From the NCBI GenBank assembly GCA_963630775.1, contig CAVGNU010000001.1:28607-92606 (forward strand): a DNA stretch of 64,000 nt, written 5' to 3'. Shown here one piece after another: positions 5,987 to 48,029 of this stretch (positions are counted from its first letter, which is position 1; each line of letters starts with the position of its first letter). The stretch is from Bacteroides fragilis. Lineage in GTDB: Bacteria > Pseudomonadota > Alphaproteobacteria > Rs-D84. The position numbers and the translations under genes are program-made. A model generated the notes under the pieces. That model saw only the letters and a list, made by a program, of their open reading frames with translations, was not told the DNA's origin and made no database searches.

Positions 5987-6408
5987 TTGATTGAATTATT
6001 GTTCGCGTTGATAAAGGCACTCTTTATCATGTGATTTTTGCGCGCCTCTATTTCTTGGGAAATAACCTTGGCAGAACACAAGCGAATTAAGTTTTCCAAT
6101 CTGTCGGCGTGACTGTATGTCTGTTTGCCCTTGTGCGATGAGTTTGTTTTCTGTGTTGGTGTATAATAATTCAGAATGCGTTTTGTCGCTTGCAATGCAA
6201 GGTTGCCATTGACGTACAGTGTATACGTGGCGTCCATGCCACCAACTGATACGCCGGCGTACTGACAGGTCAGAATAACATTAGATTCTTCTTCGTCATC
6301 GGGGTCGGTCAGGTCAATAAAATATTCTGTGAATGACGGCGTGTTCAGCACTGACACATACGTGTATGGAATTGTGTGCTCTAACAATGTCAGATAATCT
6401 TGTTGCAT
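5983..6408 (-). CDS. hypothetical protein
   Basis: 141-aa ORF with an AAGAG RBS 8 nt upstream of ATG. Convergent with comF. No recognisable motifs. Confidence 0.45.
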   Translation of the reverse strand: MQQDYLTLLEHTIPYTYVSVLNTPSFTEYFIDLTDPDDEEESNVILTCQYAGVSVGGMDATYTLYVNGNLALQATKRILNYYTPTQKTNSSHKGKQTYSHADRLENLIRLCSAKVISQEIEARKNHMIKSAFINANNNSIN

Positions 6409-6551
6409 TGCGTGCTCTTTTTTTATGATGATAATACATATATGGGTTTTGTCAAGCGTTGCACACGCGCGCGCACATGCGTACTTGAATTTTGAAATAA
6501 TTCTGATACGATTTGCGGGTAATTACAAATAATACGAAGGCAAGTTAAAAA

Positions 6552-8954: not shown

Positions 8955-9685
8955 TGGTCGTGTCTAATAAACTGATAGTGAAACGCATTTTGCAAACGTA
9001 CCAGTGTGACAGATATGGGTACGTTCGCCCGTTGATTCTGATGAATGAATTACAGGGTTGTGCGGACACACATGCCGAAATGTTGGGGTGTGGTCGTACT
9101 TTTTTGACCGCGCATAATATGGCGTGGGTTGTAACGCACTATTTGGTCGATATCATTGAGTTGCCGCGCGAGGGCGAAGAGCTGACGTTTTCCACATGGC
9201 CATCAATGACAGAATTGTTGCGTGCCACCCGTGATTTTGAAATTCGTGGTGCAGACGGTCGTTTGATGGTGCGTGCAACGTCGCAGTGGGTTCTGATTGA
9301 TATGGCAACGCGTCGGCCGGTGCGTTTGGCAGATGCCGTGCCAACATTGGTGCACAATGGGGTACGCGCATGGGACAGAATATTTTGTAAATTCCCAGAT
9401 TTTTCGCCACAAAAAACACATGTATTCAAATGTCGCTTTGATGACATTGATGTGAACCAGCATATAAATAACGCGGTCTATGCCGTGTGGGCAACCGAAA
9501 GCGTGGGTTATACATATCGCAATGAACACAAATTGCGCAGTATAGAATTGAATTTCAAAAAAGAAATCAACCCTGACACGCCACAGGTTGAAATTGATGT
9601 CAAAATTGACGGTGACACATCACATCATAAAATCCGCACAGGCGACACCGAACACGCATCGGTCATGTGCACATGGGTTAAATAA
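8954..9685 (+). CDS. acyl-[acyl-carrier-protein] thioesterase (FatA/FatB-like tandem hotdog)
   Basis: 243 aa with two hotdog halves and the conserved …VDINQHINNAVY… block of the Acyl-ACP_TE family. ATG overlaps the valS stop by 1 nt. Confidence 0.75.
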   Translation: MVVSNKLIVKRILQTYQCDRYGYVRPLILMNELQGCADTHAEMLGCGRTFLTAHNMAWVVTHYLVDIIELPREGEELTFSTWPSMTELLRATRDFEIRGADGRLMVRATSQWVLIDMATRRPVRLADAVPTLVHNGVRAWDRIFCKFPDFSPQKTHVFKCRFDDIDVNQHINNAVYAVWATESVGYTYRNEHKLRSIELNFKKEINPDTPQVEIDVKIDGDTSHHKIRTGDTEHASVMCTWVK

Positions 9686-9710
9686 CAAACGCGCCAGTGG
9701 CGCGTTTGTT
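9684..9710. terminator. bidirectional rho-independent terminator
   Basis: AACAAACGCGCCAGTGGCGCGTTTGTT: a perfect hairpin flanked by an A-run and a T-run. Confidence 0.7.
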
Positions 9711-9713
9711 ATT

Positions 9714-9765
9714 CCCCTCCATCGGGAGGGGTGTCGCACTTATGTGCGACGGGGAGGGTTACTGA
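9714..9765. repeat. GC-rich palindromic hairpin pair (CCCCTCC…GGAGGGG / GTCGCAC…GTGCGAC)
   Basis: Two consecutive perfect hairpins. Related CCCCTCC/GGAGGGG arms recur at 63186-63345. Confidence 0.5.
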
Positions 9766-9782
9766 TAAAGTTTTAACTCCTC

Positions 9783-9840
9783 TGTCATTGCGAACGTAGT
9801 GCGGCAATCCAGTTTATTATATGTCGCGCGCAGCGCGCAT
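9783..9840. repeat. dispersed ~60-bp palindromic element, copy A (CATTGCGA…GCAATCCAGT…GTCGCGCGCAGCGCGCAT)
   Basis: Near-identical copy at 63122-63180. A related GTCATTCCGTGG…CCACGGAATCC lies at 61619-61646. Confidence 0.6.
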
Positions 9841-9841
9841 T

Positions 9842-9876
9842 ATTTGAACTCTGAACTTTGCACTTTGAACTCTAAT
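9842..9876. repeat. TTTGAACT(C/T)TGAACTTTG short tandem/dispersed repeat
   Basis: The same GAACTTTGAACTCTGAACTTTGAACT motif recurs at 50165-50196. Confidence 0.55.
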
Positions 9877-9904
9877 AAAAAAACCGCCAATCGGCGGATT
9901 TTTT
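9876..9904 (-). terminator. rho-independent terminator of rpmH (bidirectional)
   Basis: AAAAAAACCGCCAATCGGCGGATTTTTT. Confidence 0.7.
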
Positions 9905-10055
9905 AGTTGGCGGCATTCACGGCCAAGCGTTTGCGCCCCGCCGCGCGACGACGATTCAAAACCTCGCGTCCGCCTTTGGTTGCCATTCTTTCACGAAAAC
10001 CGTGTGTCTGGACACGGCGTGTTTTAGATGGTTGATATGTACGTTTTGTTGCCAT
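9903..10055 (-). CDS. rpmH: 50S ribosomal protein L34
   Basis: Hand-translated 50-aa ORF below the 60-aa cutoff: [50 protein letters not shown]. Matches the L34 consensus (…RTFQPS…HGFR.RMAT…GR.VL..RR.KGRKRL). Confidence 0.9.
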
Positions 10056-10227
10056 AACTAAATCCTTTTGCGCGTATATTTAACCACAGGTTTTTATAAA
10101 ACGCAACCTTTTTATTTAGATTTTACCAATCCTAGTTTTTTCAGTCCCTCTAATATCAAATAGTAAGAGAACAACAATGAAAACAAACGCCAAAATGGTA
10201 AAAACATCGTTTTGTCCCGTGTTTAAG

Positions 10228-10458
10228 TTATCTTTTATGCTGCAATTTCTGGCACAGTGCGTTGATTGCAGTGTCTTTTAACGCTGCTGCCCGTGCGGCT
10301 GCGGCCTCGGCCACATTTATCATGTACAGGGTTGCCGCCGTGTTTATGCGAATGCCCTGTAATTGTATGCGCAAGAAAAAGTTGTTATCGCCGGTCATTT
10401 CCAGCATTTCATCAACAGTATCTTGTGTATCTTTAACGGCTTGTTTCAGTTTTTTCAT
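10228..10458 (-). CDS. hypothetical small protein
   Basis: 76-aa ORF upstream of rpmH. No convincing RBS. Ala-rich helical. Confidence 0.25.
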   Translation of the reverse strand: MKKLKQAVKDTQDTVDEMLEMTGDNNFFLRIQLQGIRINTAATLYMINVAEAAAARAAALKDTAINALCQKLQHKR

Positions 10459-10578
10459 AGCAGGCCCAGCATATCACAAATTGTTCTTTTGTCAATATGT
10501 TTTTTGGGGTTTATGTCTTGACCAAAAGCGTAAAAATTTGCTATTCTCTTTATATCAAAAATAGGGGAAAAGTAAAGT

Positions 10579-13323
10579 ATGTCTGAAATTATCAATAATA
10601 CCGATGACACGGCCGTTAAAATTCCACAGTCGTCCATTGAACATGAAATGCGTACCAGTTTCTTGGACTATGCGATGTCTGTTATTGTCGACCGCGCGTT
10701 GCCTGATGTTCGCGATGGTTGCAAGCCGGTGCATCGTCGAATTTTGTACGTTATGAACGATGTTGCGCCCGCAACAAAACCAACGGTTAAATCTGCCCGT
10801 ATTGTGGGCGAGGTTATGGGTAAATACCACCCCCATGGTGACAGTTCTATTTATGATGCAATGGCGCGTATGGCCCAAGATTTTTCTATGGGTGAAACAT
10901 TGGTTCAGGGGCAGGGTAACTTTGGCTCGCGTGACGGTGATAAACCCGCGGCCATGCGTTATACAGAGGCACGCTTGTCCAAACTGGGCGCATCGTTGAT
11001 GGACGATATGGATAAAGACACCGTTGATTGGCAACCGAACTTTGATGGTTCGTTGCAAGAACCGGTTGTTTTGCCGACCAAGTTTCCAAACCTGTTGGTA
11101 AATGGTGGTTCTGGTATTGCGGTTGGTATGGCAACGAACGTCCCAACATATAATCTGGGCGAAATTTGCAATGGTATTTTGGCAATTCTGGACAACAAAG
11201 ATATTTCAGACGATGAATTGTTTGGCATTATTCCTGGGCCTGATTTTCCAACAGGCGCAATCGTAATGGGGCGTGCCGGCGCGTACAAGGCGCACACAAC
11301 CGGTCGTGGTTCTATTATCATTCGTGCGAAAACGCATATGGAAAAATTCCATGATCACGATGCAATCGTTGTGGACGAAATTCCGTATCAGGTCAACAAG
11401 GCCCAGATGATTATTAAAATCGCCGAATTGATAAAAGATAAACGTATCGAGGGGATTTCTGAAATCCGTGATGAATCATCCAAGGAAGGGTTGCGTATCG
11501 TTGTTGAATTGAAACGTGATGCGATTGCGGACGTTGTACTGAATCATTTGTTCCAGTACACAGAAATGCAGACGAATTTCCCAGTGAACATGATGGCACT
11601 GAATCGTGGTCGCCCAATGCTGTTCAATATTCGTGGTGTTCTGGACGCGTTCATTGATTTCCGGTGCGAGGTTATTCGTCGCCGCACGATTTTCGATTTG
11701 AACAAGGCGCGTGCCCGCGCGCATACATTGCTGGGGCTGTCCGTTGCGGTTGGTAATTTGGACGAAGTTATTGAATTGATTAAATCCAGTCCAAACCCAG
11801 ATGCCGCGCGTGATGCGTTGGTATCGCGTGGTTGGCGTGCGTCGGACATCGAATCATACATCCAGCTGATTGATGATCCAAACACAGAATACAAAGACGG
11901 CATGTTCTATATGTCCGAAGATCAGGCGCGTGCAATTCTGGAATTACAGTTGCATCGTTTGACCGGTTTGGAACGTGACAAGATTCACGAAGATTTGACC
12001 GAACTGGGCGCGTTGATAAAAGACCTGTTGGACATTTTGGGCAGTCACGAACGTATCGTTCAAATCATTCGCGACGAAACCGCGTCTGTGCGCGATAACT
12101 GGTCATCACCACGTCGCACAGAAATTTCCGATGCCGAAATCGACATTGATATCGAAGATTTGATTGCCCGCGAAGATATGGTTGTCACCGTGTCGAATAC
12201 TGGTTATATCAAACGTGTTGCGCTGGATACATATCGTGCCCAGAAACGCGGGGGCAAGGGGCGCAATGCCATGACGACCAAGGATGACGATTACGTGGTT
12301 CAGGTGTTCGTTGCAAACACGCACACACCACTGTTGTTCTTCAGTTCCAAGGGGCTGTGCTATAAACTGAAAACGTACAAGTTGCCAGAGGCGGCAGCCG
12401 CGGCCAAGGGACGCCCACTGGTCAACCTGTTGCCACTGGAAAATGGCGAAACAATTACGGCAATCCTGCCAGTACCCGAAGAAGAGGTTGAACGTGTTCG
12501 TGCATCGGGCAAGGAACATTTCCTGATGTTTGCAACCGCGTCTGGTACAGTGCGTCGTAACCGTATGTCTGATTTCGATTCTATTCGTGCAAACGGTAAA
12601 ATTGCAATGAAACTGGATGACGGCGACAGTTTGATTTCTGTCTTGCCATGTAACACAGACCAAGATGTGTTCTTGGCGACATATCGTGGTCGCTGCATAC
12701 GATTCCCAGTGGACGAAATCCGCGTATTTGCCGGCCGTAATTCAACCGGTGTACGTGGCATGAATCTGGGCGCAGATGATCGCATTATTGGTATGGCAAT
12801 GCTGAACCACGGTGAATCTGATGCGGCGGTTCGTGCGGCATATATCAAACAATCACGCGCGGCACGCCGTGCGGCAACCGGTGTTGACGAAGAGGCATCT
12901 GACGAAGACGAAGAAGCAACATCATTGGTTCTGACCGATGACCAGATGGCACAAATGTCGGCAACCGAACAGTTTATTTTGACTATATCTGAAAACGGTT
13001 TCGGTAAACGCACCAGTGCATATGAATATCGTACAACGCACCGTGGCGGAAATGGGTTCGCAAACATCAAACTGGGCGGCAAGAATACCGCGGTTGCGGG
13101 TTCATTCCCCGTGGAAAATGGTCACGACGTTATGATGGTAACCGATGGCGGTAAAATCATCCGTACACCGGTTGACGATGTCCGTATTGCGGGTCGCGCA
13201 ACGGCGGGTGTAACGTTGTTCCGCACGGGCGAAAACGAACGCGTGGTGTCCGCTATCTCTATCGTCAGTGACGAAGCCGAAGAGGCAGAAGTCGCGGCCG
13301 ACGCAGCACAAATCACAGAATAA
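10579..13323 (+). CDS. gyrA: DNA gyrase subunit A
   Basis: 914 aa. Motifs AMSVIVDRALPDVRDGCKPVHRRILY, active-site Tyr region and QRDR-like HPHGDSS. C-terminal beta-pinwheel with acidic insertions. Confidence 0.97.
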   Translation: MSEIINNTDDTAVKIPQSSIEHEMRTSFLDYAMSVIVDRALPDVRDGCKPVHRRILYVMNDVAPATKPTVKSARIVGEVMGKYHPHGDSSIYDAMARMAQDFSMGETLVQGQGNFGSRDGDKPAAMRYTEARLSKLGASLMDDMDKDTVDWQPNFDGSLQEPVVLPTKFPNLLVNGGSGIAVGMATNVPTYNLGEICNGILAILDNKDISDDELFGIIPGPDFPTGAIVMGRAGAYKAHTTGRGSIIIRAKTHMEKFHDHDAIVVDEIPYQVNKAQMIIKIAELIKDKRIEGISEIRDESSKEGLRIVVELKRDAIADVVLNHLFQYTEMQTNFPVNMMALNRGRPMLFNIRGVLDAFIDFRCEVIRRRTIFDLNKARARAHTLLGLSVAVGNLDEVIELIKSSPNPDAARDALVSRGWRASDIESYIQLIDDPNTEYKDGMFYMSEDQARAILELQLHRLTGLERDKIHEDLTELGALIKDLLDILGSHERIVQIIRDETASVRDNWSSPRRTEISDAEIDIDIEDLIAREDMVVTVSNTGYIKRVALDTYRAQKRGGKGRNAMTTKDDDYVVQVFVANTHTPLLFFSSKGLCYKLKTYKLPEAAAAAKGRPLVNLLPLENGETITAILPVPEEEVERVRASGKEHFLMFATASGTVRRNRMSDFDSIRANGKIAMKLDDGDSLISVLPCNTDQDVFLATYRGRCIRFPVDEIRVFAGRNSTGVRGMNLGADDRIIGMAMLNHGESDAAVRAAYIKQSRAARRAATGVDEEASDEDEEATSLVLTDDQMAQMSATEQFILTISENGFGKRTSAYEYRTTHRGGNGFANIKLGGKNTAVAGSFPVENGHDVMMVTDGGKIIRTPVDDVRIAGRATAGVTLFRTGENERVVSAISIVSDEAEEAEVAADAAQITE

Positions 13324-28929: not shown

Positions 28930-29688
28930 ATGACACGATTCCGCATAACACTTGAATACGATGGCACGGATTTAATTGGCTGGCAAGAAAACCGCCAAGG
29001 TCCATCTGTGCAGTCTATTTTACGCGATGCAATTTTTGCATTTTGCGCCGTGCGCCCCAGTATTGTTGCGGCGGGTCGTACCGATGCGGGCGTGCATGCG
29101 TTGGGAATGGTTGCGCATTTTGATTTGGATGGGGCGTTTGACGCAAATACCGTGATGAGTGCGGTAAATTTTTATCTGACCGATAAACCCGTGGTCATAT
29201 TGTCGTGCGATGTGGTGGCGGATGACTTTAACGCGCGATTTGATTGCGTGGCGCGCCATTATCGCTATGTCGTGCTGAACCGTCGCGCCGCGCCGGTGTT
29301 GAACAAGAATCGTGTATGGTGGGTTCCGCGTGAACTGGATGTTGACGCAATGCGCGTCGCCGCCACGCGCCTGATGGGGCATCATGACTTTACCAGTTTT
29401 CGCGCCACCCAGTGTCAGGCAAAAAGCCCGATAAAAACATTGGACACTTGCAATATTATGACTGATGGCGACAACGTGATTTTTGAATTTTCTGCGCGTT
29501 CATTTTTGCATCATCAGGTACGTAATATGGTTGGTACATTGGTTGAAATTGGTCTGGGCAAACCATACGATATTGATGAAATATTTGCTGCGCACAATCG
29601 CAGTGCCGCGGGGCCAACCGCACCGGCATCAGGATTGTATTTTATTTCTGCGGATTATGCCACGGACGCGTCGCGTTCAGATATTTGA
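28930..29688 (+). CDS. truA: tRNA pseudouridine(38-40) synthase
   Basis: N-terminus MTRFRITLEYDGT…GWQ. Catalytic Asp in GRTDAGVHA. Confidence 0.9.
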   Translation: MTRFRITLEYDGTDLIGWQENRQGPSVQSILRDAIFAFCAVRPSIVAAGRTDAGVHALGMVAHFDLDGAFDANTVMSAVNFYLTDKPVVILSCDVVADDFNARFDCVARHYRYVVLNRRAAPVLNKNRVWWVPRELDVDAMRVAATRLMGHHDFTSFRATQCQAKSPIKTLDTCNIMTDGDNVIFEFSARSFLHHQVRNMVGTLVEIGLGKPYDIDEIFAAHNRSAAGPTAPASGLYFISADYATDASRSDI

Positions 29689-31576
29689 CCCGTCCCGATG
29701 GGTAAATCATAATCCCGCCATCGTGCAAGATTTTGTTCGCACATTGTGGCGCATCAATATGAAAATATGACACAATATAATCAATGCTGTCATCTTTGCA
29801 TAATGCAATAATATTATTCATCAATGGTACAAATTTCTGAATATATACCAATGTAAATTCTGGCGCGTAATATGTGTAGACGCCGTGTGCGTGCACATAG
29901 CGCGGATTTGGGGTGTCTGTGACTTCGCCATTTATTTGTTTCCATGTGTTGAATGCAAAGTAATGATTTGATGCGCGTGATTTGTTAAATTTCAGTTTTC
30001 CATTTTCGATAAACCCAACCAATTCATGATCTGGTGTTGCATAAAATACTGGTCGTGGTGTGGCAACGACAACCACCACCCCAATAATTGCAATTATACA
30101 CGCTGATACGTAATTCACGCGTCGCCGCACACCGCAAATAAACATCAGCACGCATCCCGCCGCAATAAATATAATCAGTGCGGTATTCGGCATATGTGGC
30201 ATTGGCAAACTGGCATACGGTAAATTTGTAATTATGTGCGCAATGCGCAGGCCCGTATCATAAATCATCGCCGCCAGCATCAATGGTGCATGCCACCCCA
30301 ACATTGCGGTCAATGTTCCCACGATAACCAATGGCATAATCGCAATTGAAAATATCGGCAACAGCACCAGATTGCCAATCAAACTGTATAACGGAAATGT
30401 CCCAAAGTGCGCAATTACAAACGGTGCGGTAAATACAGTTGCGATTATTGATGTCAGTGCCGCCGTGCATAAAACTTTCAGAATTTTATGTTCTGGCATT
30501 TTTGGTTTTATTACGCCCCAGAACCAAATCAGTCCAAATATCGCCGCAAATGATAATTGAAATCCAGCCTGCATGACATAGTGCGGATTTATCAAAATTA
30601 TAATCCACATTGCAACGCACACGTTGCGCAGTGATATTGCACTGCGTCCGAATACCACAGCAGCAAATATCAGTGTCGTCATCAGAAATGCACGCATTGT
30701 TGCCACATCGCAGCCCGACAGGAACAGATATAATATCAGTCCCAACCACGCGCAAATCGTTGCCGGCACTCGTGCGGGCACGCGTCGTGTAATTGGTGCA
30801 ATCAGCCGACATATAGAATAAAATAATACAAACAGCCACCCACCAACCAGTGTCATATGAAACCCGCTGATTGACCATACGTGTCCAACACCAGTTGCCG
30901 TCCATGTTGGACTGTCGTCGCGTGGAACTGCATTCTTGTATCCCAATACCAGACTGTCAACCAAGAACGAATTGGAGTTATTGTGAATTGCATCGCGCAC
31001 GGTGTTCATATTATGCGGCGGGTCATGCGATATGATGTCATAATCCTTGATATAGCCCGTCGCCGTCAAATGATTAAAGTACGCCCATCGGGCATAGTTA
31101 AACGCGCCATCGGCATACGGGGCATTTGGACGATATAAATTGACCACTGCACGAATCGTATCACCAATGTTTATCGCACCCCCATCTGATATAGATGCCC
31201 GCACAACAGGCGTGCCAATGACGTCAATATATTGACCATCGGTCTGAATGCTCAGTCGGGTTTTAGCATCAGTGTAATCTATGTTTTTAACCACACCAAC
31301 AATTGTTCGGTCGCGAATGTCACGCGTCATTTGCGGTGTTGCTAAAATGTGGGTATATGCTGCCGCATACAGCGCGCCAAAGATAAACAGGGCCATCGCC
31401 CGCACAACAATATATTTACGCAAAAATACCCCTGCTATAAATACTGCACACAACGCGCCGATTACAAATTTGCTGGGTTCAGTATTCAAAGAAAAATACA
31501 ACGCACACCCCATCGCCACCAAAAACGGCGTCCATAAAAACAGATTCAGGGATTGATTTTCAATAAACCGTTGCAT
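29642..31576 (-). CDS. comEC: ComEC/Rec2-family DNA internalisation competence protein
   Basis: Polytopic membrane protein with a Competence domain (…GVGHVWSISGFHMTLVGGWL…). Start set at ATG 31576 rather than ORF-track 31705, to avoid overlapping the divergent pyrG start. Lacks an obvious metallo-beta-lactamase C-terminal domain. Confidence 0.75.
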   Translation of the reverse strand: MQRFIENQSLNLFLWTPFLVAMGCALYFSLNTEPSKFVIGALCAVFIAGVFLRKYIVVRAMALFIFGALYAAAYTHILATPQMTRDIRDRTIVGVVKNIDYTDAKTRLSIQTDGQYIDVIGTPVVRASISDGGAINIGDTIRAVVNLYRPNAPYADGAFNYARWAYFNHLTATGYIKDYDIISHDPPHNMNTVRDAIHNNSNSFLVDSLVLGYKNAVPRDDSPTWTATGVGHVWSISGFHMTLVGGWLFVLFYSICRLIAPITRRVPARVPATICAWLGLILYLFLSGCDVATMRAFLMTTLIFAAVVFGRSAISLRNVCVAMWIIILINPHYVMQAGFQLSFAAIFGLIWFWGVIKPKMPEHKILKVLCTAALTSIIATVFTAPFVIAHFGTFPLYSLIGNLVLLPIFSIAIMPLVIVGTLTAMLGWHAPLMLAAMIYDTGLRIAHIITNLPYASLPMPHMPNTALIIFIAAGCVLMFICGVRRRVNYVSACIIAIIGVVVVVATPRPVFYATPDHELVGFIENGKLKFNKSRASNHYFAFNTWKQINGEVTDTPNPRYVHAHGVYTYYAPEFTLVYIQKFVPLMNNIIALCKDDSIDYIVSYFHIDAPQCANKILHDGGIMIYPSGRVKYLNATRPWHNPQK

Positions 31577-31655
31577 AACCAAATTATAGGAATTTATTTC
31601 GTTGCGTCGCAATGATAAATTTCGTATGATGAAAGTCCATAAGGGGGCAAATCTT

Positions 31656-33227
31656 ATGGCGAAATATATATTTATCACCGGTGGTGTTGTATCCAGTTTG
31701 GGCAAGGGCGTCGCAGCGGCAGGTTGTGGCGCTCTTCTTCAATCGCGCGGGTATTCCGTGCATGCGCGCAAATTTGATCCGTATTTGAATGTTGACCCTG
31801 GGACTATGTCGCCGTTCCAGCATGGCGAAGTGTACGTTACCCATGACGGGTTTGAAACGGATTTGGATTTGGGATATTACGAACGATTCTTGGGCGTACA
31901 ATTGTCGCGTAATGATTCTGTGTCGGGTGGACGTATTTATTGGGACGTGCTGAATGCCGAACGCCGTGGTGATTATTTGGGCGCGACGGTGCAAATGATT
32001 CCACACGTCAGCAATCGAATCAAAGAATACATTGCCGCCCCAACCAATACGGATTTTGTTGTGTGTGAAATTGGTGGTACGGTCGGTGATATAGAGGGAA
32101 AAATATTCCTGGAATCCATTCGCCAGTTTGCGAATGATGTCGGTCGCCGTAATGTAATGTTTGTGCACCTGACGCTGGCCCCATATTTGGAACAGAGTGG
32201 CGAATTAAAAACAAAACCAACCCAGATGTCTGTGCGTCGTCTGTTGGAAAACGGGATTCAGGCAGACATGCTGATTGTGCGCACGCCGCGTATGTTGACC
32301 GCAGACGAACGCGCCAAAATCGGTATGTTTTGTAATATGCCGGCAAAAAATGTAATCAGCGGGATTGATGTTGATAATATTTACAAAATTCCACTGGCCT
32401 ACGATGCCCAGAATGTTTTTAACATAATTGCTGAACATTTTGGATTGGAAAATCGCGCGGGCGATATGACAAAATTTCAACGCATATCAAATCATCTGGC
32501 GGCAGATTTGCCAACCGTACGAATAGGCATTGTTGGTAAATACTTTGATGTGCCTGATGCCTATAAATCACTGAATGCGGCATTGTTCCACGCGGGGATT
32601 CAGAATAATGTGCATGTCGCGTTAAAGAAAATAAATGCAGAAACATTTTCGCCATCTGATTGTGCGGATGTTGATGGCGTCCTTGTCCCTGGGGGATTTG
32701 GCGCGCGTGGTGTTGATGGCAAAATCGCAGCCGCCAATTATGCCAGAACAACGGGCACGCCGTATATGGGAATCTGTCTGGGTATGCAGGTCGCGGTAAT
32801 TGAATTTGCGCAAAATGTGCTGGGAATTAAAGATGCAAATTCCACAGAATTTGATGCGAATTGCACGCCCGTTATAAATATTATGCCAGACCACACGGGC
32901 GATATGGGTGGAACATTGCGTTTGGGCGCGTACCCGTGCGTGATTACGCCGCGTACGCATGCCGCCGAAATTTATGATACGAATAAAATATCAGAACGCC
33001 ATCGGCACCGCTACGAAATGGACATATCATTTGAAAAACAATTTTCTGATGCGGGCATGATTATCTCTGGACGCAGTCCAGACGGACGCCTGCCCGAAAT
33101 CGTAGAATTAGCAAATCACCCATTCTTTGTTGCGGGTCAATTTCATCCGGAATTTCAGTCCAGTCCATTTACCGGCCACCCAATGTTTAACGCATTTATT
33201 GCGGCGGCAATAAAACATAAAAAATAA
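31656..33227 (+). CDS. pyrG: CTP synthase
   Basis: AAGGGGG RBS. N-terminus MAKYIFITGGVVSSLGKG. C-terminal glutamine amidotransferase domain with GICLGMQ. Confidence 0.95.
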   Translation: MAKYIFITGGVVSSLGKGVAAAGCGALLQSRGYSVHARKFDPYLNVDPGTMSPFQHGEVYVTHDGFETDLDLGYYERFLGVQLSRNDSVSGGRIYWDVLNAERRGDYLGATVQMIPHVSNRIKEYIAAPTNTDFVVCEIGGTVGDIEGKIFLESIRQFANDVGRRNVMFVHLTLAPYLEQSGELKTKPTQMSVRRLLENGIQADMLIVRTPRMLTADERAKIGMFCNMPAKNVISGIDVDNIYKIPLAYDAQNVFNIIAEHFGLENRAGDMTKFQRISNHLAADLPTVRIGIVGKYFDVPDAYKSLNAALFHAGIQNNVHVALKKINAETFSPSDCADVDGVLVPGGFGARGVDGKIAAANYARTTGTPYMGICLGMQVAVIEFAQNVLGIKDANSTEFDANCTPVINIMPDHTGDMGGTLRLGAYPCVITPRTHAAEIYDTNKISERHRHRYEMDISFEKQFSDAGMIISGRSPDGRLPEIVELANHPFFVAGQFHPEFQSSPFTGHPMFNAFIAAAIKHKK

Positions 33228-35353: not shown

Positions 35354-36526
35354 ATGAGAAGAATGGTACTATCCATATTTTTCCTGTGCATAATGATGTG
35401 TGGCGTGGCGCACGCGGCACAGTATCGCGCAGCACTGGTCGCGAATATGGACACGGGTCAGGTTTTAATCCGTGAAAATGCGAACCAGCCGAACTATCCC
35501 GCATCATTGACCAAGATTATGACGGTATATTTGACATTTGATGCACTGGAACACGGTCGCCTGCATTTGGACGATTATTTGATTGTGTCGAATTATGCGG
35601 CGGCGGCGTCCCCTGTGAAACTGGGGTTGGCCGCGGGCAGCAAGATTACCGTCGAAGATGCGATAAAGGCCGTGACGGTAATGAGTGCGAACGATGTCGC
35701 TCGCGTACTGGCCGAAAATTTGAAGGGTGGCAAAGAGGGTAATTTTGCCGACATGATGACGCGTGTCGCAAATGAAATCGGTCTGAAAAATACAAATTTT
35801 GAAAATTCGTCTGGCCTGCCAAACGATGATCATATGTCAACCGCGCGCGACATTGCACTGTTGTCCATGGCGGTGTATAAACATTTCCCGCAATACTGGA
35901 AATATTTCGGAATCAAAACATGGACATATAATGGTAAAACATATACCAATGGTAATCGTTTGCTGGGGACATATGCGGGCTGTGATGGTATGAAAACCGG
36001 ATTTACAAATAAATCGCGTTATTCATTGGTGGCAACGGCAAATCGTGGTGGCACGCACTTGATGGCGGTGGTCTTGGGTGCAGAAAGCAAAGACGTTCGT
36101 GCCGCGGTCGCAACGCAACTGTTAAATCGCGGTTTTGAAATGACAAAAAATAATTCCGCACCGATTGAACGTACAACACCCATCCAACCAATCGTCGCCG
36201 CGCAGCCAACGCAAACCACACCTGTCGCGACCGCATCAACATTTACGGCCGCATATAATGCGGCAACGGCAAACGCCGCGCCTGCATACAGCGCACCATC
36301 GGTCGCACGTGGTGGGGCGGGTGTTCAGTTCGGTGCGTTTACGTCGCGTGATGCCGCCGCGCAACAGGTTGCAAATGTTAAAAATAAATTGGGCGTTGTT
36401 GCCACAATTGAACAGGCACCAAATGGCATGTTTCGCGTGCGTGCAAATGGTATCACGGACGCAGCAGCAACCGAATTGCGTAATCGCGCAACGAACGCTG
36501 GCATTGACAGTTACGTATTTCATTAA
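35354..36526 (+). CDS. D-alanyl-D-alanine carboxypeptidase (PBP5/6 class) with C-terminal SPOR domain
   Basis: Signal peptide. SxxK (SLTKIM), SxN, KTG (KTGFT) motifs. C-terminal 80 aa SPOR-like (…GVQFGAFTSRDAAAQQV…FRVRANGI…). Confidence 0.85.
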   Translation: MRRMVLSIFFLCIMMCGVAHAAQYRAALVANMDTGQVLIRENANQPNYPASLTKIMTVYLTFDALEHGRLHLDDYLIVSNYAAAASPVKLGLAAGSKITVEDAIKAVTVMSANDVARVLAENLKGGKEGNFADMMTRVANEIGLKNTNFENSSGLPNDDHMSTARDIALLSMAVYKHFPQYWKYFGIKTWTYNGKTYTNGNRLLGTYAGCDGMKTGFTNKSRYSLVATANRGGTHLMAVVLGAESKDVRAAVATQLLNRGFEMTKNNSAPIERTTPIQPIVAAQPTQTTPVATASTFTAAYNAATANAAPAYSAPSVARGGAGVQFGAFTSRDAAAQQVANVKNKLGVVATIEQAPNGMFRVRANGITDAAATELRNRATNAGIDSYVFH

Positions 36527-41970: not shown

Positions 41971-42333
41971 TCAAACAGTATTTAATCGCACCAGATATTT
42001 ATACAGTGCATCTGGTGTTTGAATGCGTGCACGGCGCAGGCCACATGCTCGCTTGGTAAATGCAACACATGTGGGGTCGCCCGCGTAAAGCAAATCGGGC
42101 GGGGGCGTTGCGCCCGCCACGCATACCACCGCCCAACCGTGCGCGCGCAACGCGCGTAATCTGCGCGCCGTTATCGGAATTGGAATAATTTTATTTTGGC
42201 GTACAAATTGATACATAATCATTTGTTTGTTTGCATTGCCCGCCGGCACAATCGGTGCGCAATGTTTGAAATGACGACAAACAATACGCGGTAATAATTT
42301 TGATGTTTTGGTGCAAAATGCAACAATTATCAT
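41971..42333 (-). CDS. hypothetical protein
   Basis: 120-aa ORF downstream of the 118-aa gene. Start uncertain. Confidence 0.35.
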   Translation of the reverse strand: MIIVAFCTKTSKLLPRIVCRHFKHCAPIVPAGNANKQMIMYQFVRQNKIIPIPITARRLRALRAHGWAVVCVAGATPPPDLLYAGDPTCVAFTKRACGLRRARIQTPDALYKYLVRLNTV

Positions 42334-42360
42334 TTGTGTTTTCCCCCGAATAAAAAAAGA

Positions 42361-42717
42361 TTATTCATGCACAATCCAACCGCGTGCAAATGCCGCCGCA
42401 TCCAGTGTTTCCATCGCCTGCCGCCACAGGTCGGCCGCACGATTTTCTGCCCAGATATATTGATGTGGCGCGCGACGGCGATCGCCAAATTTTTTCATCA
42501 CGTCCAGTTGTTCCGCACTCAGTTTTCCTGATAGATACAGTTTAGTAATTAATGTTTCCACGTCCAGCAATTCAGCGCAACGACGCGTTGCATGCGCTGC
42601 GCTGTGCACAAACCCGTTTTGCACAGATTTAGAATATAAAAACCAAAACCACATTTGTTCTGCACTGTGAAATTTTTCAGGTGCATATTCGTATTTAGTA
42701 TGTTGGTGTGCTGTCAT
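42361..42717 (-). CDS. hypothetical protein
   Basis: 118 aa with AAGGGAGAA RBS. A perfect 16-bp palindrome lies upstream. Own terminator and promoter region separate it from the T4SS operon. Confidence 0.5.
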   Translation of the reverse strand: MTAHQHTKYEYAPEKFHSAEQMWFWFLYSKSVQNGFVHSAAHATRRCAELLDVETLITKLYLSGKLSAEQLDVMKKFGDRRRAPHQYIWAENRAADLWRQAMETLDAAAFARGWIVHE

Positions 42718-42752
42718 TTGTTTTCTCCCTTTTGTTGTTTTGTTTTCCCCCG

Positions 42753-42768
42753 AACGCGTACGCGTTCA
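42753..42768. promoter_or_regulatory. perfect 16-bp palindrome GAACGCGTACGCGTTC (candidate operator)
   Basis: Exact dyad ~36 bp upstream of the 42717 start codon. Confidence 0.4.
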
Positions 42769-42978: not shown

Positions 42979-43010
42979 AAAATAAACCCGCCATACGGCG
43001 GGATTTTATT
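42979..43010 (-). terminator. terminator of virB8-9-10-like operon
   Basis: CCCGCCATACGGCGGG hairpin with flanking T-run. Abuts the VirB10 stop. Confidence 0.7.
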
Positions 43011-45435
43011 ACAAGATTGGCGGGAAACAATCGCCACCCGATGATGGACAGCAATTAAACCCTTGGTCGCCCATATCGGTAAACACTTCGCCCGTGCAAC
43101 AACCATTGGCATCTGGGTTTGTGCCGTCTTCGCAGGTGATGACGGCGGTTGCTTGGTTTTCCTCTTTCTGGGCCGTTTGGAACGGATTCTGAATTGAACC
43201 ATCGTCATTATATTTCAGACCCAAAACATTTTCGTTGTATGTTTTGCTGCCAACGCCGCCCGTGCTGGCAATACTGTTCGTATTGGACGCGTCCTGCTGA
43301 TTTTTATACAGCGCATCTTGCTTTGCATTATTGATGGCCTGATAATTCAGTGATTTGCAATACGCCGCAACGGTACGATAATCATAGCCCGCATCATATA
43401 AATCTTGTGTTCTGTTTTTATCAATGTCCCACAGTCCACTGGTCGCGTCTTGGGTACAGTAATTGTCCTGTAAATTAAACGAACGTACCTGACCAATCCA
43501 TGAACCGTCGGTATAATCCACCTGACCAGCGTGTGCCCAATTCGCGCGCTTATTACGAACATCTATATTGGTATACTTCACTTTGTCATTTAGATTTTTC
43601 AGTCCTGTGTCGCCCACGACCCGTGCCAAGGAGCATCTTTTACTGTCGTCACGGCCACATGTCAGCACCAAATCAGTCGGTGGAAACACTGTAATGCGTG
43701 TACCCGCCGCGATGGAAAATGGCGGAACGGTATTGTCCATCATGTCAACAATAAACTTTTGTGCGACCTGATTCCATGCGGTGATAATTTCATTTTTTGC
43801 CAATTCAGACGAACGCACCGTGCCCGATTGAACAACTGTGTTATTGTCCAAATCAATCTGGTTCACAAATTTATCAGTAATTGGTGCAATCATATTCACC
43901 GCCGCCGGCACAACCGCCGTCAGCAATGGCATAACCATCTGTTCTATATAATCGGTGCTGCCGTAACCTGGGACACCAACGCGCCCCTGTGAATCGCCAG
44001 AAAACGGACTGGTGCCGTCGCCACTGAAATTAAATTCAACACCATTTGGCAATACAAATTGATACCAGCGAATGTCCATACGCCCAACGGTTTTATATGG
44101 CCCCGGAATACTGCCTGTCACATACCCTAACAGCAATGTTCCCGTTGGAATAATAACCGTACGGCCATCATCTGAATAAACGTTACGGTCAACCGTTGCG
44201 CGCACGGGCAGACCTTTGCCTGTACCATCATATAATGCTGGATCGGCACGAACCTCTGACACGATTGTGGCTGGAATTGGTTTATATTGGCGCAGTACAA
44301 ACGTGCGGTCAAACGGATCGGACGAGAATATAGCGTCCTGGCCACTTGAACCAACAATCACATCGTCTTGTTTTTCTTTCAACGAAATCCCGCCACGGAA
44401 TGCATTGTGAATTGCATCTGCATCGGCATAGTCGGGCGCAGGCATTGCACCAGACACATCAGATGAAATCAGTTCTTCGGTGGACAACTGGTACGCACGA
44501 TTCGCAACCTTTTTAACTGGATTTGACAACTGGGGCAAGTTACCCCCCGAAATCGTTGTATAGCCGATGTGTTCAGCATCTGTACCAATCTTTTTACCAT
44601 TGTTTTGAATATCGGTAATCAGGCCACTGTCCGGATTATAAATACCCGTGGGGTTATTGCATTGTTTGTCAGAAAATGGGTGGAAATAATACGCGCCGCG
44701 TTCCGGCCGAATCCAACCAATCTGATTGCCAGTTGAATCATACCCCGGAAATGCAAATTCAGAACATACAACGCTGGGCGTCGGATCGAGCTCTGTATCT
44801 GCAAACGGATCAGATGGTGCGATTGTTTCAATATCTTTTTTGATTTCAACCTGAACTGGTTTTACAGGTTCAATTTCTGGTTCGGGTTTTGTTTCGACAA
44901 TCTTTACCGGTTCGGGTTTTGTCACAGGTGTTGGTGCAGCCGCGCCCATAACCAAAACAATCTTGTCGGTCTTTTTCATACCATCGGGTTGCGTTGCCCC
45001 ACGCCAATCAATAAACAGCGATGTTGTTTCCGTATCCATTGCGGTCGTCGGTACATATTCCAATACCAGTGTGCACGGAATTTGTGCGTCGATATAACCC
45101 ATACCACGACAAGTATCGGTTGATGTGAATCCGGCGATGTCTTTGTGGCGACGTACATCCATAATTTTAACGGGTGCGGTTGCCGAAACCTTTAACGTTG
45201 TCTTTTGCTTGTCACCAACCTTGGTATTGGCCCAGTTGATGGATTCCGTCGCTGGCGTGATAATCAGGTTGATTGGTGTATCTTCTGCTTGTATATCGTT
45301 GGGTTTACCACGTCCGCCAATCAGTACGGTCATTAAAATCAGCACCACAACAAACGCCACCCCCAGCAACAACCACTGAACCGACCTTGGCGTAGATTTA
45401 CGCATTTGTGAAATTTGTTGTTTGATACCACTCAT
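43009..45435 (-). CDS. virB10: VirB10/TrbI-family type IV secretion protein with ~200-aa cysteine-rich C-terminal extension
   Basis: Cytoplasmic N-terminus and single TM (WLLLGVAFVVVLILMTVLIGG). Pro-rich linker TKPEPVKIVETKPEPEIEPVKPVQVEIKK. TrbI-like C-terminal barrel ending in the family signature …AAGTRITVFPPTDLVL. Extra tail with 12 Cys including two CC doublets. Confidence 0.8.
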   Translation of the reverse strand: MSGIKQQISQMRKSTPRSVQWLLLGVAFVVVLILMTVLIGGRGKPNDIQAEDTPINLIITPATESINWANTKVGDKQKTTLKVSATAPVKIMDVRRHKDIAGFTSTDTCRGMGYIDAQIPCTLVLEYVPTTAMDTETTSLFIDWRGATQPDGMKKTDKIVLVMGAAAPTPVTKPEPVKIVETKPEPEIEPVKPVQVEIKKDIETIAPSDPFADTELDPTPSVVCSEFAFPGYDSTGNQIGWIRPERGAYYFHPFSDKQCNNPTGIYNPDSGLITDIQNNGKKIGTDAEHIGYTTISGGNLPQLSNPVKKVANRAYQLSTEELISSDVSGAMPAPDYADADAIHNAFRGGISLKEKQDDVIVGSSGQDAIFSSDPFDRTFVLRQYKPIPATIVSEVRADPALYDGTGKGLPVRATVDRNVYSDDGRTVIIPTGTLLLGYVTGSIPGPYKTVGRMDIRWYQFVLPNGVEFNFSGDGTSPFSGDSQGRVGVPGYGSTDYIEQMVMPLLTAVVPAAVNMIAPITDKFVNQIDLDNNTVVQSGTVRSSELAKNEIITAWNQVAQKFIVDMMDNTVPPFSIAAGTRITVFPPTDLVLTCGRDDSKRCSLARVVGDTGLKNLNDKVKYTNIDVRNKRANWAHAGQVDYTDGSWIGQVRSFNLQDNYCTQDATSGLWDIDKNRTQDLYDAGYDYRTVAAYCKSLNYQAINNAKQDALYKNQQDASNTNSIASTGGVGSKTYNENVLGLKYNDDGSIQNPFQTAQKEENQATAVITCEDGTNPDANGCCTGEVFTDMGDQGFNCCPSSGGDCFPPIL

Positions 45436-45459
45436 ATTATACCGCCACCATTGACATTA

Positions 45460-47007
45460 TTATTGAATACGCACAACGTTGCAACTGGCCCCGCTGAATT
45501 TCAACAACTGGTCGCATAATTTCTGCGCTGTTTCGATATCAGACATTGGCCCAATGCGCAGACGATACAGACGTGCCGTGTGCGATGTTGAACCCAAATC
45601 GCCAACACCTTGTTCGTCAACCGCAAAGAATACCTTGTCCTTGTACGGAGTCAACAATCCAACACCGTCGTCACCGCTGAATTTTGCCAACAGACCCGTC
45701 CAGTAATCGTCCAGTGCCTTGACCGACGTGTCGGATTTCAGTTCAACCGCAACCCCCGATTGGTTGCTGGTAATCAATGGAATATTCGTCTGGGGCAGGT
45801 ACGAACCCGCGGTCAACCGTTCGGTTGGCATCATTGTAACGCCCGATGTCCCCGATGACATAACCGGCATTGTAACATTTGTTGTGACCGTGCCCGCTGG
45901 CATATAATAACCAGACGCCGCCACAGCATTAGTATTTGAAACATATGTCGGAGAACCGGTATAGTTCAACCCCGCAGCATTGATTGCATTCTGATCCATC
46001 GTGTATGCAATGGTGTTCAGCGATTGGCCTGACATCATAGATTGCGCAACATTTGCCTCTGCCAATGCCATGACAGACGCCGTATCGGCAATCAAGAACG
46101 GTTTTTCACGCTTTTTAATGCAAACGATACGTTGGCCACTGCGTAATACCATGTCGCCTACGGCCTCTACAATCAACAGACGACCATCTTCGCCGTCGGT
46201 GCGGAAACTGACAGGGGATTCACCCCCTTCGACCAACAGTGACACAACCGGACGTTGGGTCATCGCAATGACCTTGTCACCAAAGTCAATGTATGTGAAT
46301 ATGCGGTCGCGCCATACGCGTTCGGGTGCAATTACATAATCGTCAGGATTTGGGACAAAAATATCCAAGTCAAAACGAAATTCTGATGGATCAATTTTCA
46401 TAGATTTAATCCAACCATAATCTTCGCCATCAACGCCAACCGTGCTGCTGGGGGCGGCGGCCTTTTTGAAAATTGACGATGCGCCACCAGTTGTGGTGGT
46501 CGCCGCGGTTGCGTTTGGCAATGTTGCGTTGCCGTCCAAAACAACGTCAACCTGTGAATAGGTAATCTCGCTGGAATTTGATGGTTCGCTGCGCAGATAG
46601 AAAATATACTTGTTCCCCGATTTGCCCGTCACAATCAAATTAGTGTCTGAACCCTGATTGCTGGCAGTTGGGCTGATAACCATTGTGCGGTCGCCCTGAT
46701 TGGCCTCAATCGTGAACAGACCCTGATTACCAATAACTGCGTCCGCAATTTGTTCCCCGTTTGGCAGGGACACCATCGTCACCATACCGTTGCGCAATTT
46801 GATTGGCAATACACTGCCTGATTCCCATGACAGTTGCGCGTACCCAGGTTTAATACTGCCTGCGGCCATATTTGCGGTTGGGTTGTCCCACGCATCTTGG
46901 ACACCATAGTTGATGCCTGTGGCCGCACCATGTGCAGACACACACAATGCCATAACGCAGAAAACAGAAATGTTTAATTTAATCGCAGTTCTAAAACTCA
47001 TGCCCAT
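45460..47007 (-). CDS. virB9: VirB9/TrbG/CagX-family type IV secretion protein with C-terminal SPOR-like domain
   Basis: Signal peptide. N-domain …TNLIVTGKSGNKYIFYLRS. CagX_C-like block …RIFTYIDFGDK…VSLLVEGGESPVSFRTDGEDGRLLIVEAVGDMVLRSGQRIVCIKK. Ser/Thr-rich linker. Terminal …ARLYRLRIGPMSDIETAQKLCDQLLKFSGASCNVVRIQ resembles SPOR. Confidence 0.75.
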   Translation of the reverse strand: MGMSFRTAIKLNISVFCVMALCVSAHGAATGINYGVQDAWDNPTANMAAGSIKPGYAQLSWESGSVLPIKLRNGMVTMVSLPNGEQIADAVIGNQGLFTIEANQGDRTMVISPTASNQGSDTNLIVTGKSGNKYIFYLRSEPSNSSEITYSQVDVVLDGNATLPNATAATTTTGGASSIFKKAAAPSSTVGVDGEDYGWIKSMKIDPSEFRFDLDIFVPNPDDYVIAPERVWRDRIFTYIDFGDKVIAMTQRPVVSLLVEGGESPVSFRTDGEDGRLLIVEAVGDMVLRSGQRIVCIKKREKPFLIADTASVMALAEANVAQSMMSGQSLNTIAYTMDQNAINAAGLNYTGSPTYVSNTNAVAASGYYMPAGTVTTNVTMPVMSSGTSGVTMMPTERLTAGSYLPQTNIPLITSNQSGVAVELKSDTSVKALDDYWTGLLAKFSGDDGVGLLTPYKDKVFFAVDEQGVGDLGSTSHTARLYRLRIGPMSDIETAQKLCDQLLKFSGASCNVVRIQ

Positions 47008-47034
47008 ATTCCTTACCTTTCTGTGGCGCGGTGT

Positions 47035-47718
47035 TTAATTGCCGCTGGCCAGATAGCCCGTATTCAGCGGATCGCCATTACCGGATTCAACGGTGTATTC
47101 GGCAACGCGAATCCCCAACGGGTTGTCCAGACGATCCGACCATTTTAATGTCGCATTATCGTCCATCTCTAATTTTACTATGATTGTATAATCTTTTTTA
47201 TCGGTCTGTCCACCACTATCTTCACAGAAATACTTAAAATTTACAGCCCATGTTTTATAGTCCGACGTTCTGGGCTGAACTGCGCCGTTTTCAAATTCCA
47301 CGCTGCAACTAAATTCAAAGTCCGGCGTATTGTTCATCAGTGCCGTCCACATATTGGTCTGGGTAAACGCGGCATATACCGCCGGCGTTGACCAAGTATG
47401 CACAACGCCATCTTCGGCATTATTCCATTTGCGCAACATTACGCGTCCATCAGGCACAATTTCATTGCGTGCCTTGATATATTCGCGAATGAACGCGCGC
47501 GTGTACCATTTGAAATTATCGTCGGTCGGTGGCAATTCAGACAGCGTGATTTCCAGATTTTCACGTGGTTGGGTCATCAAAAAGAACACCTGCGGCCGAT
47601 TTAATGGAAACATTTTGTACAGGGTGATGCCCAGCACCCCCAGCACGACAATCGCGCCGGCGAACACAAACGTCATCAGTCTGGACAGCAAAATTGGCGG
47701 TTCTATGCGGTCTTGCAA
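47035..47718 (-). CDS. virB8: VirB8/TrbF-family type IV secretion protein
   Basis: Bitopic topology (short cytoplasmic N-terminus, one TM, ~190-aa periplasmic domain). NPLG motif (…DNPLGIRVAEYTV…). Position first in a B8-B9-B10 order. Confidence 0.65.
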   Translation of the reverse strand: MQDRIEPPILLSRLMTFVFAGAIVVLGVLGITLYKMFPLNRPQVFFLMTQPRENLEITLSELPPTDDNFKWYTRAFIREYIKARNEIVPDGRVMLRKWNNAEDGVVHTWSTPAVYAAFTQTNMWTALMNNTPDFEFSCSVEFENGAVQPRTSDYKTWAVNFKYFCEDSGGQTDKKDYTIIVKLEMDDNATLKWSDRLDNPLGIRVAEYTVESGNGDPLNTGYLASGN

Positions 47719-47955
47719 GTAAATCCTCTCCCTGTATATGGGCGATTGTAGCCAAAAAACGGTATGTGGTGCAAGCGAAAATTACGCACAATCATATTTT
47801 ATGCATACGGTTTTTCAGATTTTACTTGCGCCATCATGATTAAAAACATATAATATTTCAGTTTTTTCACTTGCTTTTTCGTACGGGTGTGCTACTCTGG
47901 CGACAATTATCGGGGTTTGCAAGGCGTAAAAGTCAGGTGCGATTGCGATTGAAAC

Positions 47956-48029
47956 AGGGGCATAGTTCAACGGTAGAATATCGGTCTCCAAAACCGCGGA
48001 TAAGGGTTCGATTCCTTTTGCCCCTGCCA
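47956..48029 (+). tRNA. tRNA-Trp (anticodon CCA)
   Basis: AGGGGCA acceptor, anticodon loop CTCCAAA, T-arm AAGGG-TTCGATT-CCTTT, TGCCCCT-G-CCA. Canonical position upstream of secE-nusG. Confidence 0.9.

Follow-up and report, generated by a model that had tools for sequence, protein, structure and literature searches.

A chromosomal VirB8-VirB9-VirB10-like operon with SPOR and six-cysteine fusions as candidate core of a type IV secretion-type machine in Candidatus Enterousia (Rs-D84)

The window analysed here, a 64-kb stretch of DNA from Candidatus Enterousia (order Rs-D84), a lineage of gut Alphaproteobacteria with genomes of ~0.9 Mb, carries on its minus strand an operon of three genes encoding homologues of VirB8, VirB9 and VirB10, three families of the type IV secretion system (T4SS) core. 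The best explanation that we can offer, and one that we take to be about evenly poised between right and wrong, is that this trio provides the core channel for a T4SS-type machine whose genes are dispersed over the Rs-D84 chromosome. It is built on what the three genes show in homology and fold, in their domain layout and operon structure, and in their conservation and selection. An earlier note on this DNA, made from its letters, had described the trio as a stand-alone core operon with non-canonical domain fusions.

The genomes of Rs-D84, including those of Enterousia, are smaller than ~1 Mb and encode a fermentative metabolism; they lack biosynthetic pathways to amino acids, nucleotides and lipids as well as the standard transporters, and their metabolites are probably taken from other cells (PMC12306168). 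The comparative results refer, where 80 genomes or species are mentioned, to the best 80 of 211 species in which relatives of the VirB10-like protein were found by a scan of one genome per species. These 80 are labelled as Candidatus Enterousia or as metagenome-assembled genomes (MAGs) of uncultured Rickettsiales or Alphaproteobacteria from human and animal guts, and one of them is a closed chromosome of 958,618 bp.

Families and domain layout of the three proteins

The operon consists of a VirB8-like gene (47035..47718, 227 amino acids, aa), a VirB9-like gene (45460..47007, 515 aa) and a VirB10-like gene (43009..45435, 808 aa), all on the minus strand. The three family assignments had been proposed from motifs, and profile searches now place every one of the proteins in the corresponding family above the Pfam gathering score: VirB8 (PF04335) with 40.2 bits and an E-value of 4.4e-10 (cut-off 23.2), CagX (PF03524) with 77.4 bits and 1.6e-21 over nearly the whole profile (cut-off 34.2), and TrbI (PF03743) with 61.6 bits (cut-off 35). 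The NCBIfam equivalog models give 15.7 for VirB8 (NF010439, cut-off 188), 52.4 for VirB9 (TIGR02781, cut-off 217.7), 58.2 for VirB10 (NF038091, cut-off 220) and, as a partial match of the VirB10-like protein, 46.9 for ComB10 (NF038092, cut-off 300). These scores lie far under the cut-offs, so the three proteins are distant members of the families and not orthologues of the canonical VirB8, VirB9 and VirB10.

Translation of the VirB8-like gene begins at a TTG codon preceded by GGGAGAGGA, a start that is supported by an alignment of 19 sequences. The protein has a very short cytoplasmic N-terminus, one transmembrane (TM) helix, whose hydrophobic segment is kept in all 19 sequences, and a periplasmic domain which is of a predicted NTF2 type. 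The NPLG motif on which the first assignment was based is invariant in the same alignment, and the domain also has two invariant cysteines. The best relative of solved structure in a profile search of the PDB is TrwG of Bartonella, a weak match (8e-4) in which the NPLG motifs are aligned.

In the VirB9-like protein, an apparent signal peptide is followed by the N- and C-terminal VirB9 domains, a variable linker (aa ~335-395) and a SPOR-type peptidoglycan-binding domain. The protein is thus apparently secreted, the signal peptide having been recognised by eye. The CagX/VirB9 homology region spans aa 58-299 (46111..46836); the TraK_N profile also matches there in 6 of 12 orthologues, and a weak PDB profile match to TrwF/VirB9 extends over both domains. 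The C-terminal extension of ~200 aa with a SPOR-like end, one of the fusions proposed in the earlier note, could be verified: the domain (aa ~395-515, 45463..45825) matches Pfam SPOR (PF05036) with 24.0 bits and 5e-5 (cut-off 21) over the second half of the profile only, and CagX and SPOR were both detected in all 12 orthologues scanned (SPOR at E <= 0.01, best 1.3e-6). The SPOR block is conserved in the alignment and is also present in the VirB9-like protein of a distant locus (L087). Across the 80 species the protein is 72-99% identical, and aa ~190-330, which correspond to the C-terminal VirB9 domain, are almost invariant. No gene for a VirB7-type lipoprotein was found in the operon, where the gaps of 24-27 nucleotides (nt) are too small, or beside it, and no conserved lipobox cysteine is seen in the alignment of the VirB9-like proteins. 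A second SPOR fusion occurs in the window, at the C-terminus of a D-Ala-D-Ala carboxypeptidase (Peptidase_S11; 35354-36526, plus strand), and it is found in locus L089 as well.

The VirB10-like protein was modelled with AlphaFold2 (AF2) from 71 sequences, with a mean predicted local distance difference test score (pLDDT) of 68. Its parts are, in this order, a cytoplasmic N-terminus, a TM helix, a PapD-like domain, a proline-rich linker, a beta domain, the TrbI barrel with its antenna, a tail and a six-cysteine module. The N-terminal peptide (aa 1-21) and the TM helix (aa 22-40) are encoded by 45316..45435; the model contains helices at aa 2-14 and 17-39, P16 and W21 are invariant in the 71 sequences, and conservation amounts to 0.66 in the peptide and 0.76 in the TM helix. 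A conserved cytoplasmic peptide of this kind hints at a cytoplasmic partner. Two inserted domains follow, both of which had been overlooked in the earlier note. The first (aa 55-167, 44935..45273) is a PapD/ASH/MSP-like beta-sandwich with two invariant cysteines. It is connected by the proline-rich linker (aa 168-222, 44770..44934; low pLDDT, conservation 0.43), which reads APTPVTKPEPVK...EPVKPVQ, to the second, a beta-rich domain at aa 223-291 (CSEFAFPGY...GTDAEHIGY; 44563..44769) with pLDDT values of 80-86, a conservation of 0.77 and two invariant cysteines of its own; this domain has no match in Pfam or NCBIfam.

The C-terminal TrbI/VirB10 barrel (aa 365-592, 43660..44343) was recognised by the Pfam profile, the model and a fold search, and is ~30% identical to VirB10 of a rhizobial plasmid. 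The antenna projects from it as two long helices in the model (aa 493-525 and 542-568, 43732..43959) and is the most conserved region of the protein (0.88), in agreement with a working pore. In the fold search TraF, Xanthomonas VirB10 and TrwE match best, with the core complexes 3JQO and 7O3J at the top; by analogy with these solved T4SS core complexes, the antenna helices would form a pore in the outer membrane. The profile match, the N-terminal TM helix, the proline-rich linker and the barrel with a two-helix antenna make the protein a member of the TrbI/VirB10 family, a label that it already bears in some databases.

The C-terminal extension and the six-cysteine module

Behind ...TDLVL the VirB10-like chain continues for 217 aa (aa 592-808). 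This extension is real: homologues of ~800 aa are found at full length in the genomes of 211 species, and neither it nor that of the VirB9-like protein is the product of a frameshift, an artefact that conservation, synteny and the ratio of non-synonymous to synonymous substitutions (dN/dS) rule out. The tail contains 10 cysteines, and not 12 as had been counted before, out of 14 in the whole protein, and all 10 are invariant in an alignment of 69 sequences.

Two parts can be distinguished in the tail. The spacer (aa 593-764, 43144..43659) is variable (conservation 0.37-0.52) and constitutes the fastest-evolving part of the operon, with dN/dS values of 0.28-0.31 as compared to 0.04-0.07 upstream and 0.00 in the six-cysteine module; its four cysteines are invariant in the 69-sequence alignment and at least 90% conserved among the more diverse 71 sequences. 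It was modelled with low AF2 confidence except at aa ~660-715, and a model of the tail alone reached a mean pLDDT of 56.6. The module that closes the protein (aa 765-808, 43012..43143) has the form C-x10-CC-x14-CC-x6-C-FPPIL, with a dN of 0.000 and with its six cysteines invariant in the 71 sequences.

The tail had been regarded as unique to this protein, a view that its last ~43 aa contradict. When the tail was used as query against 1.84 billion representative proteins, 217 matches were obtained, and the module, in the more general form C-x10-CC-x14-CC-x6-C-[FY]PP[ILM], was found on envelope or secreted proteins of at least three further kinds. It ends a family of ~700-aa proteins with a coiled-coil region in the cytoplasm, a TM helix and a linker in the periplasm; it is present in two to three tandem copies on secreted proteins of ~215 aa; and it occurs on mini-proteins of ~70 aa (the carriers include P0150, P0170, P0179 and P0171). 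Contigs syntenic with the window encode at least some of these carriers. A profile search with the module itself matched only proteins of 44-74 aa, and there is no Pfam or NCBIfam model for it. The module, previously undescribed and common to several envelope protein families, is a lineage-wide extracytoplasmic building block, which argues for a docking or anchoring role rather than for that of an effector. Docking or anchoring parts are also the most likely nature of the additions to VirB10.

Related to this, it had been argued that the C-terminus of VirB10 forms the pore and that the tail would consequently be exposed on the cell surface. The model contradicts this argument: the antenna helices are internal, and the chain re-enters the barrel (aa 569-592) before the tail begins, so that a periplasmic position would be the default one for the tail.

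A gene cluster that adjoins ftsQ/ftsA recurs in contigs with module-bearing mini-proteins (L081, positions 4898-10987; L091; L092). It encodes proteins of 108 aa and ~446 aa (the latter a putative lipoprotein), a MacB_PCD/FtsX protein, an ABC ATPase, a protein of ~240 aa, a secreted module protein of ~223 aa, a mini module protein and a protein of ~278 aa. The cluster may represent a Lol-type transporter with lineage-specific neighbours.

Transcription unit, synteny and selection

The genes of the trio are separated by 27 and 24 nt in the window, and by medians of 24 and 21 nt across the loci from which adjacent orthologues were recovered. Six nt past the VirB10 stop there is an intrinsic terminator (42987..43002, minus strand), a six-pair GC hairpin with a T-run, reading CCCGCCGTATGGCGGG followed by TTTATTTTT. 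A stable hairpin and T-run within 70 nt of this stop are found in 67 of the 80 genomes with differing stem sequences, and the recurrence of the hairpin despite these differences makes the terminator a conserved feature. The trio thus forms a transcription unit with its own terminator, as had been proposed. For the promoter region claimed at 47719-47950, the sole basis is a single weak sigma-70-like match (47818..47791, 9 of 12 consensus positions), to be considered as putative. This match and a ribosome-binding site lie in the upstream intergenic region (47719..47955), which is bounded by a divergent tRNA-Trp gene (47956-48029, plus strand). The tRNA gene is part of the usual tRNA-Trp/secE/nusG arrangement and is an unlikely integration site, the trio being situated at its 5' side.

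In the 80 genomes the gene order is the same as far as the contigs reach: rpoB, rplL, rplJ, rplA, rplK, nusG, secE, the trio, two small open reading frames (ORFs), yidC and lspA; in the window, the tRNA-Trp gene stands between secE and the trio. Mean identities to the window proteins are 62% for the VirB8-like, 78% for the VirB9-like and 57% for the VirB10-like protein. The neighbouring YidC shows 65%, and the better conservation of the VirB9-like protein supports the interpretation of the trio as a core channel. All ORFs of the trio are intact in the 80 species, dN/dS values against close relatives are 0.019, 0.019 and 0.11 for the VirB8-, VirB9- and VirB10-like genes, and the GC content of the locus (0.46-0.47) is like that of its surroundings.

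The trio extends beyond this group. The VirB10-like architecture is kept down to 40% identity, and when a relative of 40% identity was taken as the query, MAGs from termite guts and other sources were reached. At VirB10 identities of 40-45% the three genes stay together in three other neighbourhoods. In L085 they are flanked by dnaX and the gene of an unknown protein of 972 aa, in L086 by clpB and an ABC transporter, and in L087 they lie beside nusG with different genes downstream. In the last of these (L087, 13017-15674) the trio is followed by genes for a cysteine-rich, Gln/Ala-rich protein of 656 aa and for a secreted protein of 227 aa, which match no known family.

Since no more than three of the ~eleven genes usual for a T4SS lie at this locus, it could be thought that the trio is a non-functional, decaying remnant of the T4SS of an integrated conjugative element or plasmid. 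We give this idea almost no credence. The ORFs are intact in 80 species with dN/dS values of 0.02-0.11, the synteny beside ribosomal genes is fixed, the architecture persists to 40% identity, GC is ordinary, and no integrase or relaxase was detected nearby among the scanned ORFs of the window; data on selection and conservation effectively refute a pseudogene remnant. The fixed synteny, intact ORFs, low dN/dS and ordinary GC likewise exclude a mobile element, and the locus, fixed in 80 species among housekeeping neighbours with no integrase or relaxase nearby, does not look like a mobile-element T4SS; this reading was rejected on conservation, synteny and dN/dS. Judged from the sequences, the genes of the trio are functional and vertically inherited.

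The two small genes past the terminator (41971..42717, minus strand) code for a 118-aa and a 120-aa protein and occur in 77 and 74 of the 80 loci, respectively. Beside the trio of L085-L087 they are missing; as neighbours conserved in Enterousia but not elsewhere, they are doubtful members of the system. Neither protein belongs to a Pfam or NCBIfam family, and their PDB profile matches are at chance level. The 118-aa protein (42361-42717, minus strand) has a mean identity of 71% across the 77 genomes, and a perfect 16-bp palindrome, GAACGCGTACGCGTTC, which could be a candidate operator, is placed just upstream of its gene (42752-42767). In the 120-aa protein (41971-42333, minus strand), His24 and Cys89 are invariant in 23 sequences; it could be a small thiol enzyme, perhaps of a permuted papain-like type.

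The trio as a proposed T4SS-type core, its alternatives and its relatives

Thirty other ORFs of the window (all those longer than 410 aa plus 20 smaller ones) were scanned against Pfam, and no T4SS component was found among them. Those with a family match are housekeeping: a tRNA synthetase, GyrA, AcrB/TolC, ComEC, PyrG, RmuC, pyruvate kinase, MraY, FtsW, MurG, ComF, RecR and PlsX. In agreement with the earlier note, neither an ATPase nor a pilin gene is adjacent to the trio, the next genes being the two small ORFs. The description of the operon as stand-alone is correct locally, that is, in the window, in ~10-kb flanks of the 80 syntenic genomes and in the three distant neighbourhoods. Wherever it is visible, the trio is a self-contained unit. 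An apparently secreted low-complexity protein of 457 aa with a weak C-terminal OmpA-like match is encoded in the cell-wall gene cluster after murG (3885-5258, plus strand), where murC would be expected.

As the core of a dispersed machine, the trio would work as follows. The VirB10-like protein would sit in the inner membrane with its N-terminal helix as anchor, span the periplasm and, by analogy with the solved complexes, open the outer membrane with its antenna helices; the VirB9-like protein would form a ring around it, and the VirB8-like protein would provide a scaffold in the inner membrane and periplasm. The SPOR domain may fasten the ring to peptidoglycan, replacing VirB7 in its anchoring role, and the PapD-like sandwich, the second beta domain, the spacer and the six-cysteine module could be periplasmic docking or anchoring parts. 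The inner-membrane and ATPase components would be encoded elsewhere in the genome, as in Rickettsiales, and the machine may allow these bacteria, which depend on partners, to exchange or take up macromolecules in a contact-dependent manner.

Several points weigh against this explanation. Genes for VirB4, VirB11, VirD4, VirB6, VirB2, VirB3 and VirB5 were not seen among the Pfam-scanned ORFs of the 64-kb window, nor were they beside the trio in the ~10-kb flanks of the five kinds of neighbourhood. VirB4 has been described as the only T4SS protein of universal occurrence, and it is the one that defines these systems (PMC4027160). The NCBIfam scores of all three proteins are far under the equivalog cut-offs, and the published genome survey of Rs-D84 does not mention a T4SS (PMC12306168); the literature found under Enterousia or Rs-D84 contains nothing on such systems either. 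Assembly of the complex, formation of the pore and the nature of the substrate, which count on the same side, are inferred, together with peptidoglycan anchoring and the partner ATPases.

The presence of comF (5252-5986) and comEC (29642-31705) in the window, which had already been pointed out, would allow a different use of the same channel. In Helicobacter the ComB system brings DNA into the periplasm and ComEC carries it on to the cytoplasm. In a similar way, the trio could pass DNA into the periplasm and ComEC with ComF into the cytoplasm, for transformation or as a supply of nucleotides. Conservation of comEC in related contigs, the partial ComB10 match (46.9 bits) and the fact that Helicobacter CagY and ComB10 are the only PDB sequence-profile matches of the VirB10-like protein favour such a function, as does the lack of nucleotide biosynthesis in Rs-D84 together with the report of type IV pili in another lineage only and not in Rs-D84 (PMC12306168). 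Nevertheless, the ComB10 score is far under its cut-off of 300 and below the VirB10 score, and ComB needs a VirB4-type ATPase (ComB4) besides ComB2, ComB3 and ComB6, and the regions scanned showed no sign of these. In addition, ComEC and ComF are common in bacteria for which competence is not known. DNA uptake of the ComB type is consequently an unlikely explanation, to which we would assign a minor share.

The core-channel explanation supposes ATPases at other loci, and this supposition can be questioned. The self-contained three-gene unit is met in different neighbourhoods, where no other T4SS gene was seen, its conservation is extreme for T4SS parts, and the cytoplasmic N-terminus of the VirB8-like protein is unusually short. 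Core complexes of plasmid T4SSs (pKM101) assemble without ATPases if they are expressed alone. The trio could accordingly be a repurposed core that works with no ATPase and is no longer a secretion system, serving either as a passive channel across the envelope or as a tie between outer membrane, peptidoglycan and inner membrane. SPOR domains, as established for FtsN and DamX, bind septal peptidoglycan, so that the domain may direct the trio to division sites; another envelope enzyme of the window, the carboxypeptidase mentioned above, also bears one. On the other hand, the absence of ATPases refers to the window and the flanks, T4SS genes are scattered over the reduced genomes of related bacteria such as Rickettsiales, and the conserved cytoplasmic peptide of the VirB10-like protein suggests a cytoplasmic partner. 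To our knowledge there is no precedent for a repurposed T4SS core without an ATPase, and none appeared in the literature searches. We hold this alternative to be improbable. Its boldest form is a long shot too: Rs-D84 would have no VirB4, VirB11 or VirD4 at all, and the trio would be an ATPase-independent, SPOR-anchored trans-envelope pore or tether, possibly at division sites, which might dock other proteins through the six-cysteine module and could provide an uptake route for a bacterium devoid of ordinary transporters.

Comparison with known systems brings out both the likeness and the peculiarities of the trio. With the core of the VirB/Trw/pKM101 (MPF-T) systems it shares the three families and the gene order B8-B9-B10, the two-domain organisation of VirB9 and, in VirB10, the N-terminal TM helix, the proline-rich linker, the C-terminal barrel and the two antenna helices. 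It differs from them in that no VirB7 gene is present locally, VirB9 is extended by a linker and a SPOR domain, and VirB10 has two inserted periplasmic domains and the 217-aa C-terminal extension on a barrel that is ~30% identical; moreover, the operon belongs to the chromosomal core genome and is not accompanied by the remaining genes of a virB operon. The Helicobacter pylori ComB system resembles it by having a B8-B9-B10 block apart from the ATPase operon, ComEC in the genome and, in ComB10, a detectable relative, whereas in Enterousia no ComB6 or ComB7 stands in front of the trio, ComB2-4 were not seen and the decorations are different.

The rvh system of Rickettsiales is likewise composed of chromosomal, vertically inherited T4SS genes in separate islands of a small alphaproteobacterial genome. 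However, its B8-B9-B10 block runs on into virB11-virD4, while the VirB10-like gene of the window is followed by a terminator, two small unrelated ORFs and yidC, with the same gene order in the 80 genomes; we know of no SPOR or six-cysteine fusion described for rvh. FtsN, DamX and RlpA also end in a SPOR domain, which in this case is fused to a T4SS VirB9 homologue. A VirB9 with a SPOR domain where no VirB7 gene is present locally and a VirB10 with three additional periplasmic parts are new for the biology of T4SS. No paper describing the Enterousia trio was found in the literature search, and none in the searched library mentions a SPOR domain, VirB9 and type IV secretion together.

Enterousia and its Rs-D84 relatives occur widely in the guts of humans and animals, and no mechanism has been proposed for their dependence on other cells. 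A T4SS-type channel of the core genome, with a component whose conservation exceeds that of YidC, would be a concrete candidate for the interface with their partners. If it were true that the ATPases are absent, the trio would be the first repurposed T4SS core known to us.

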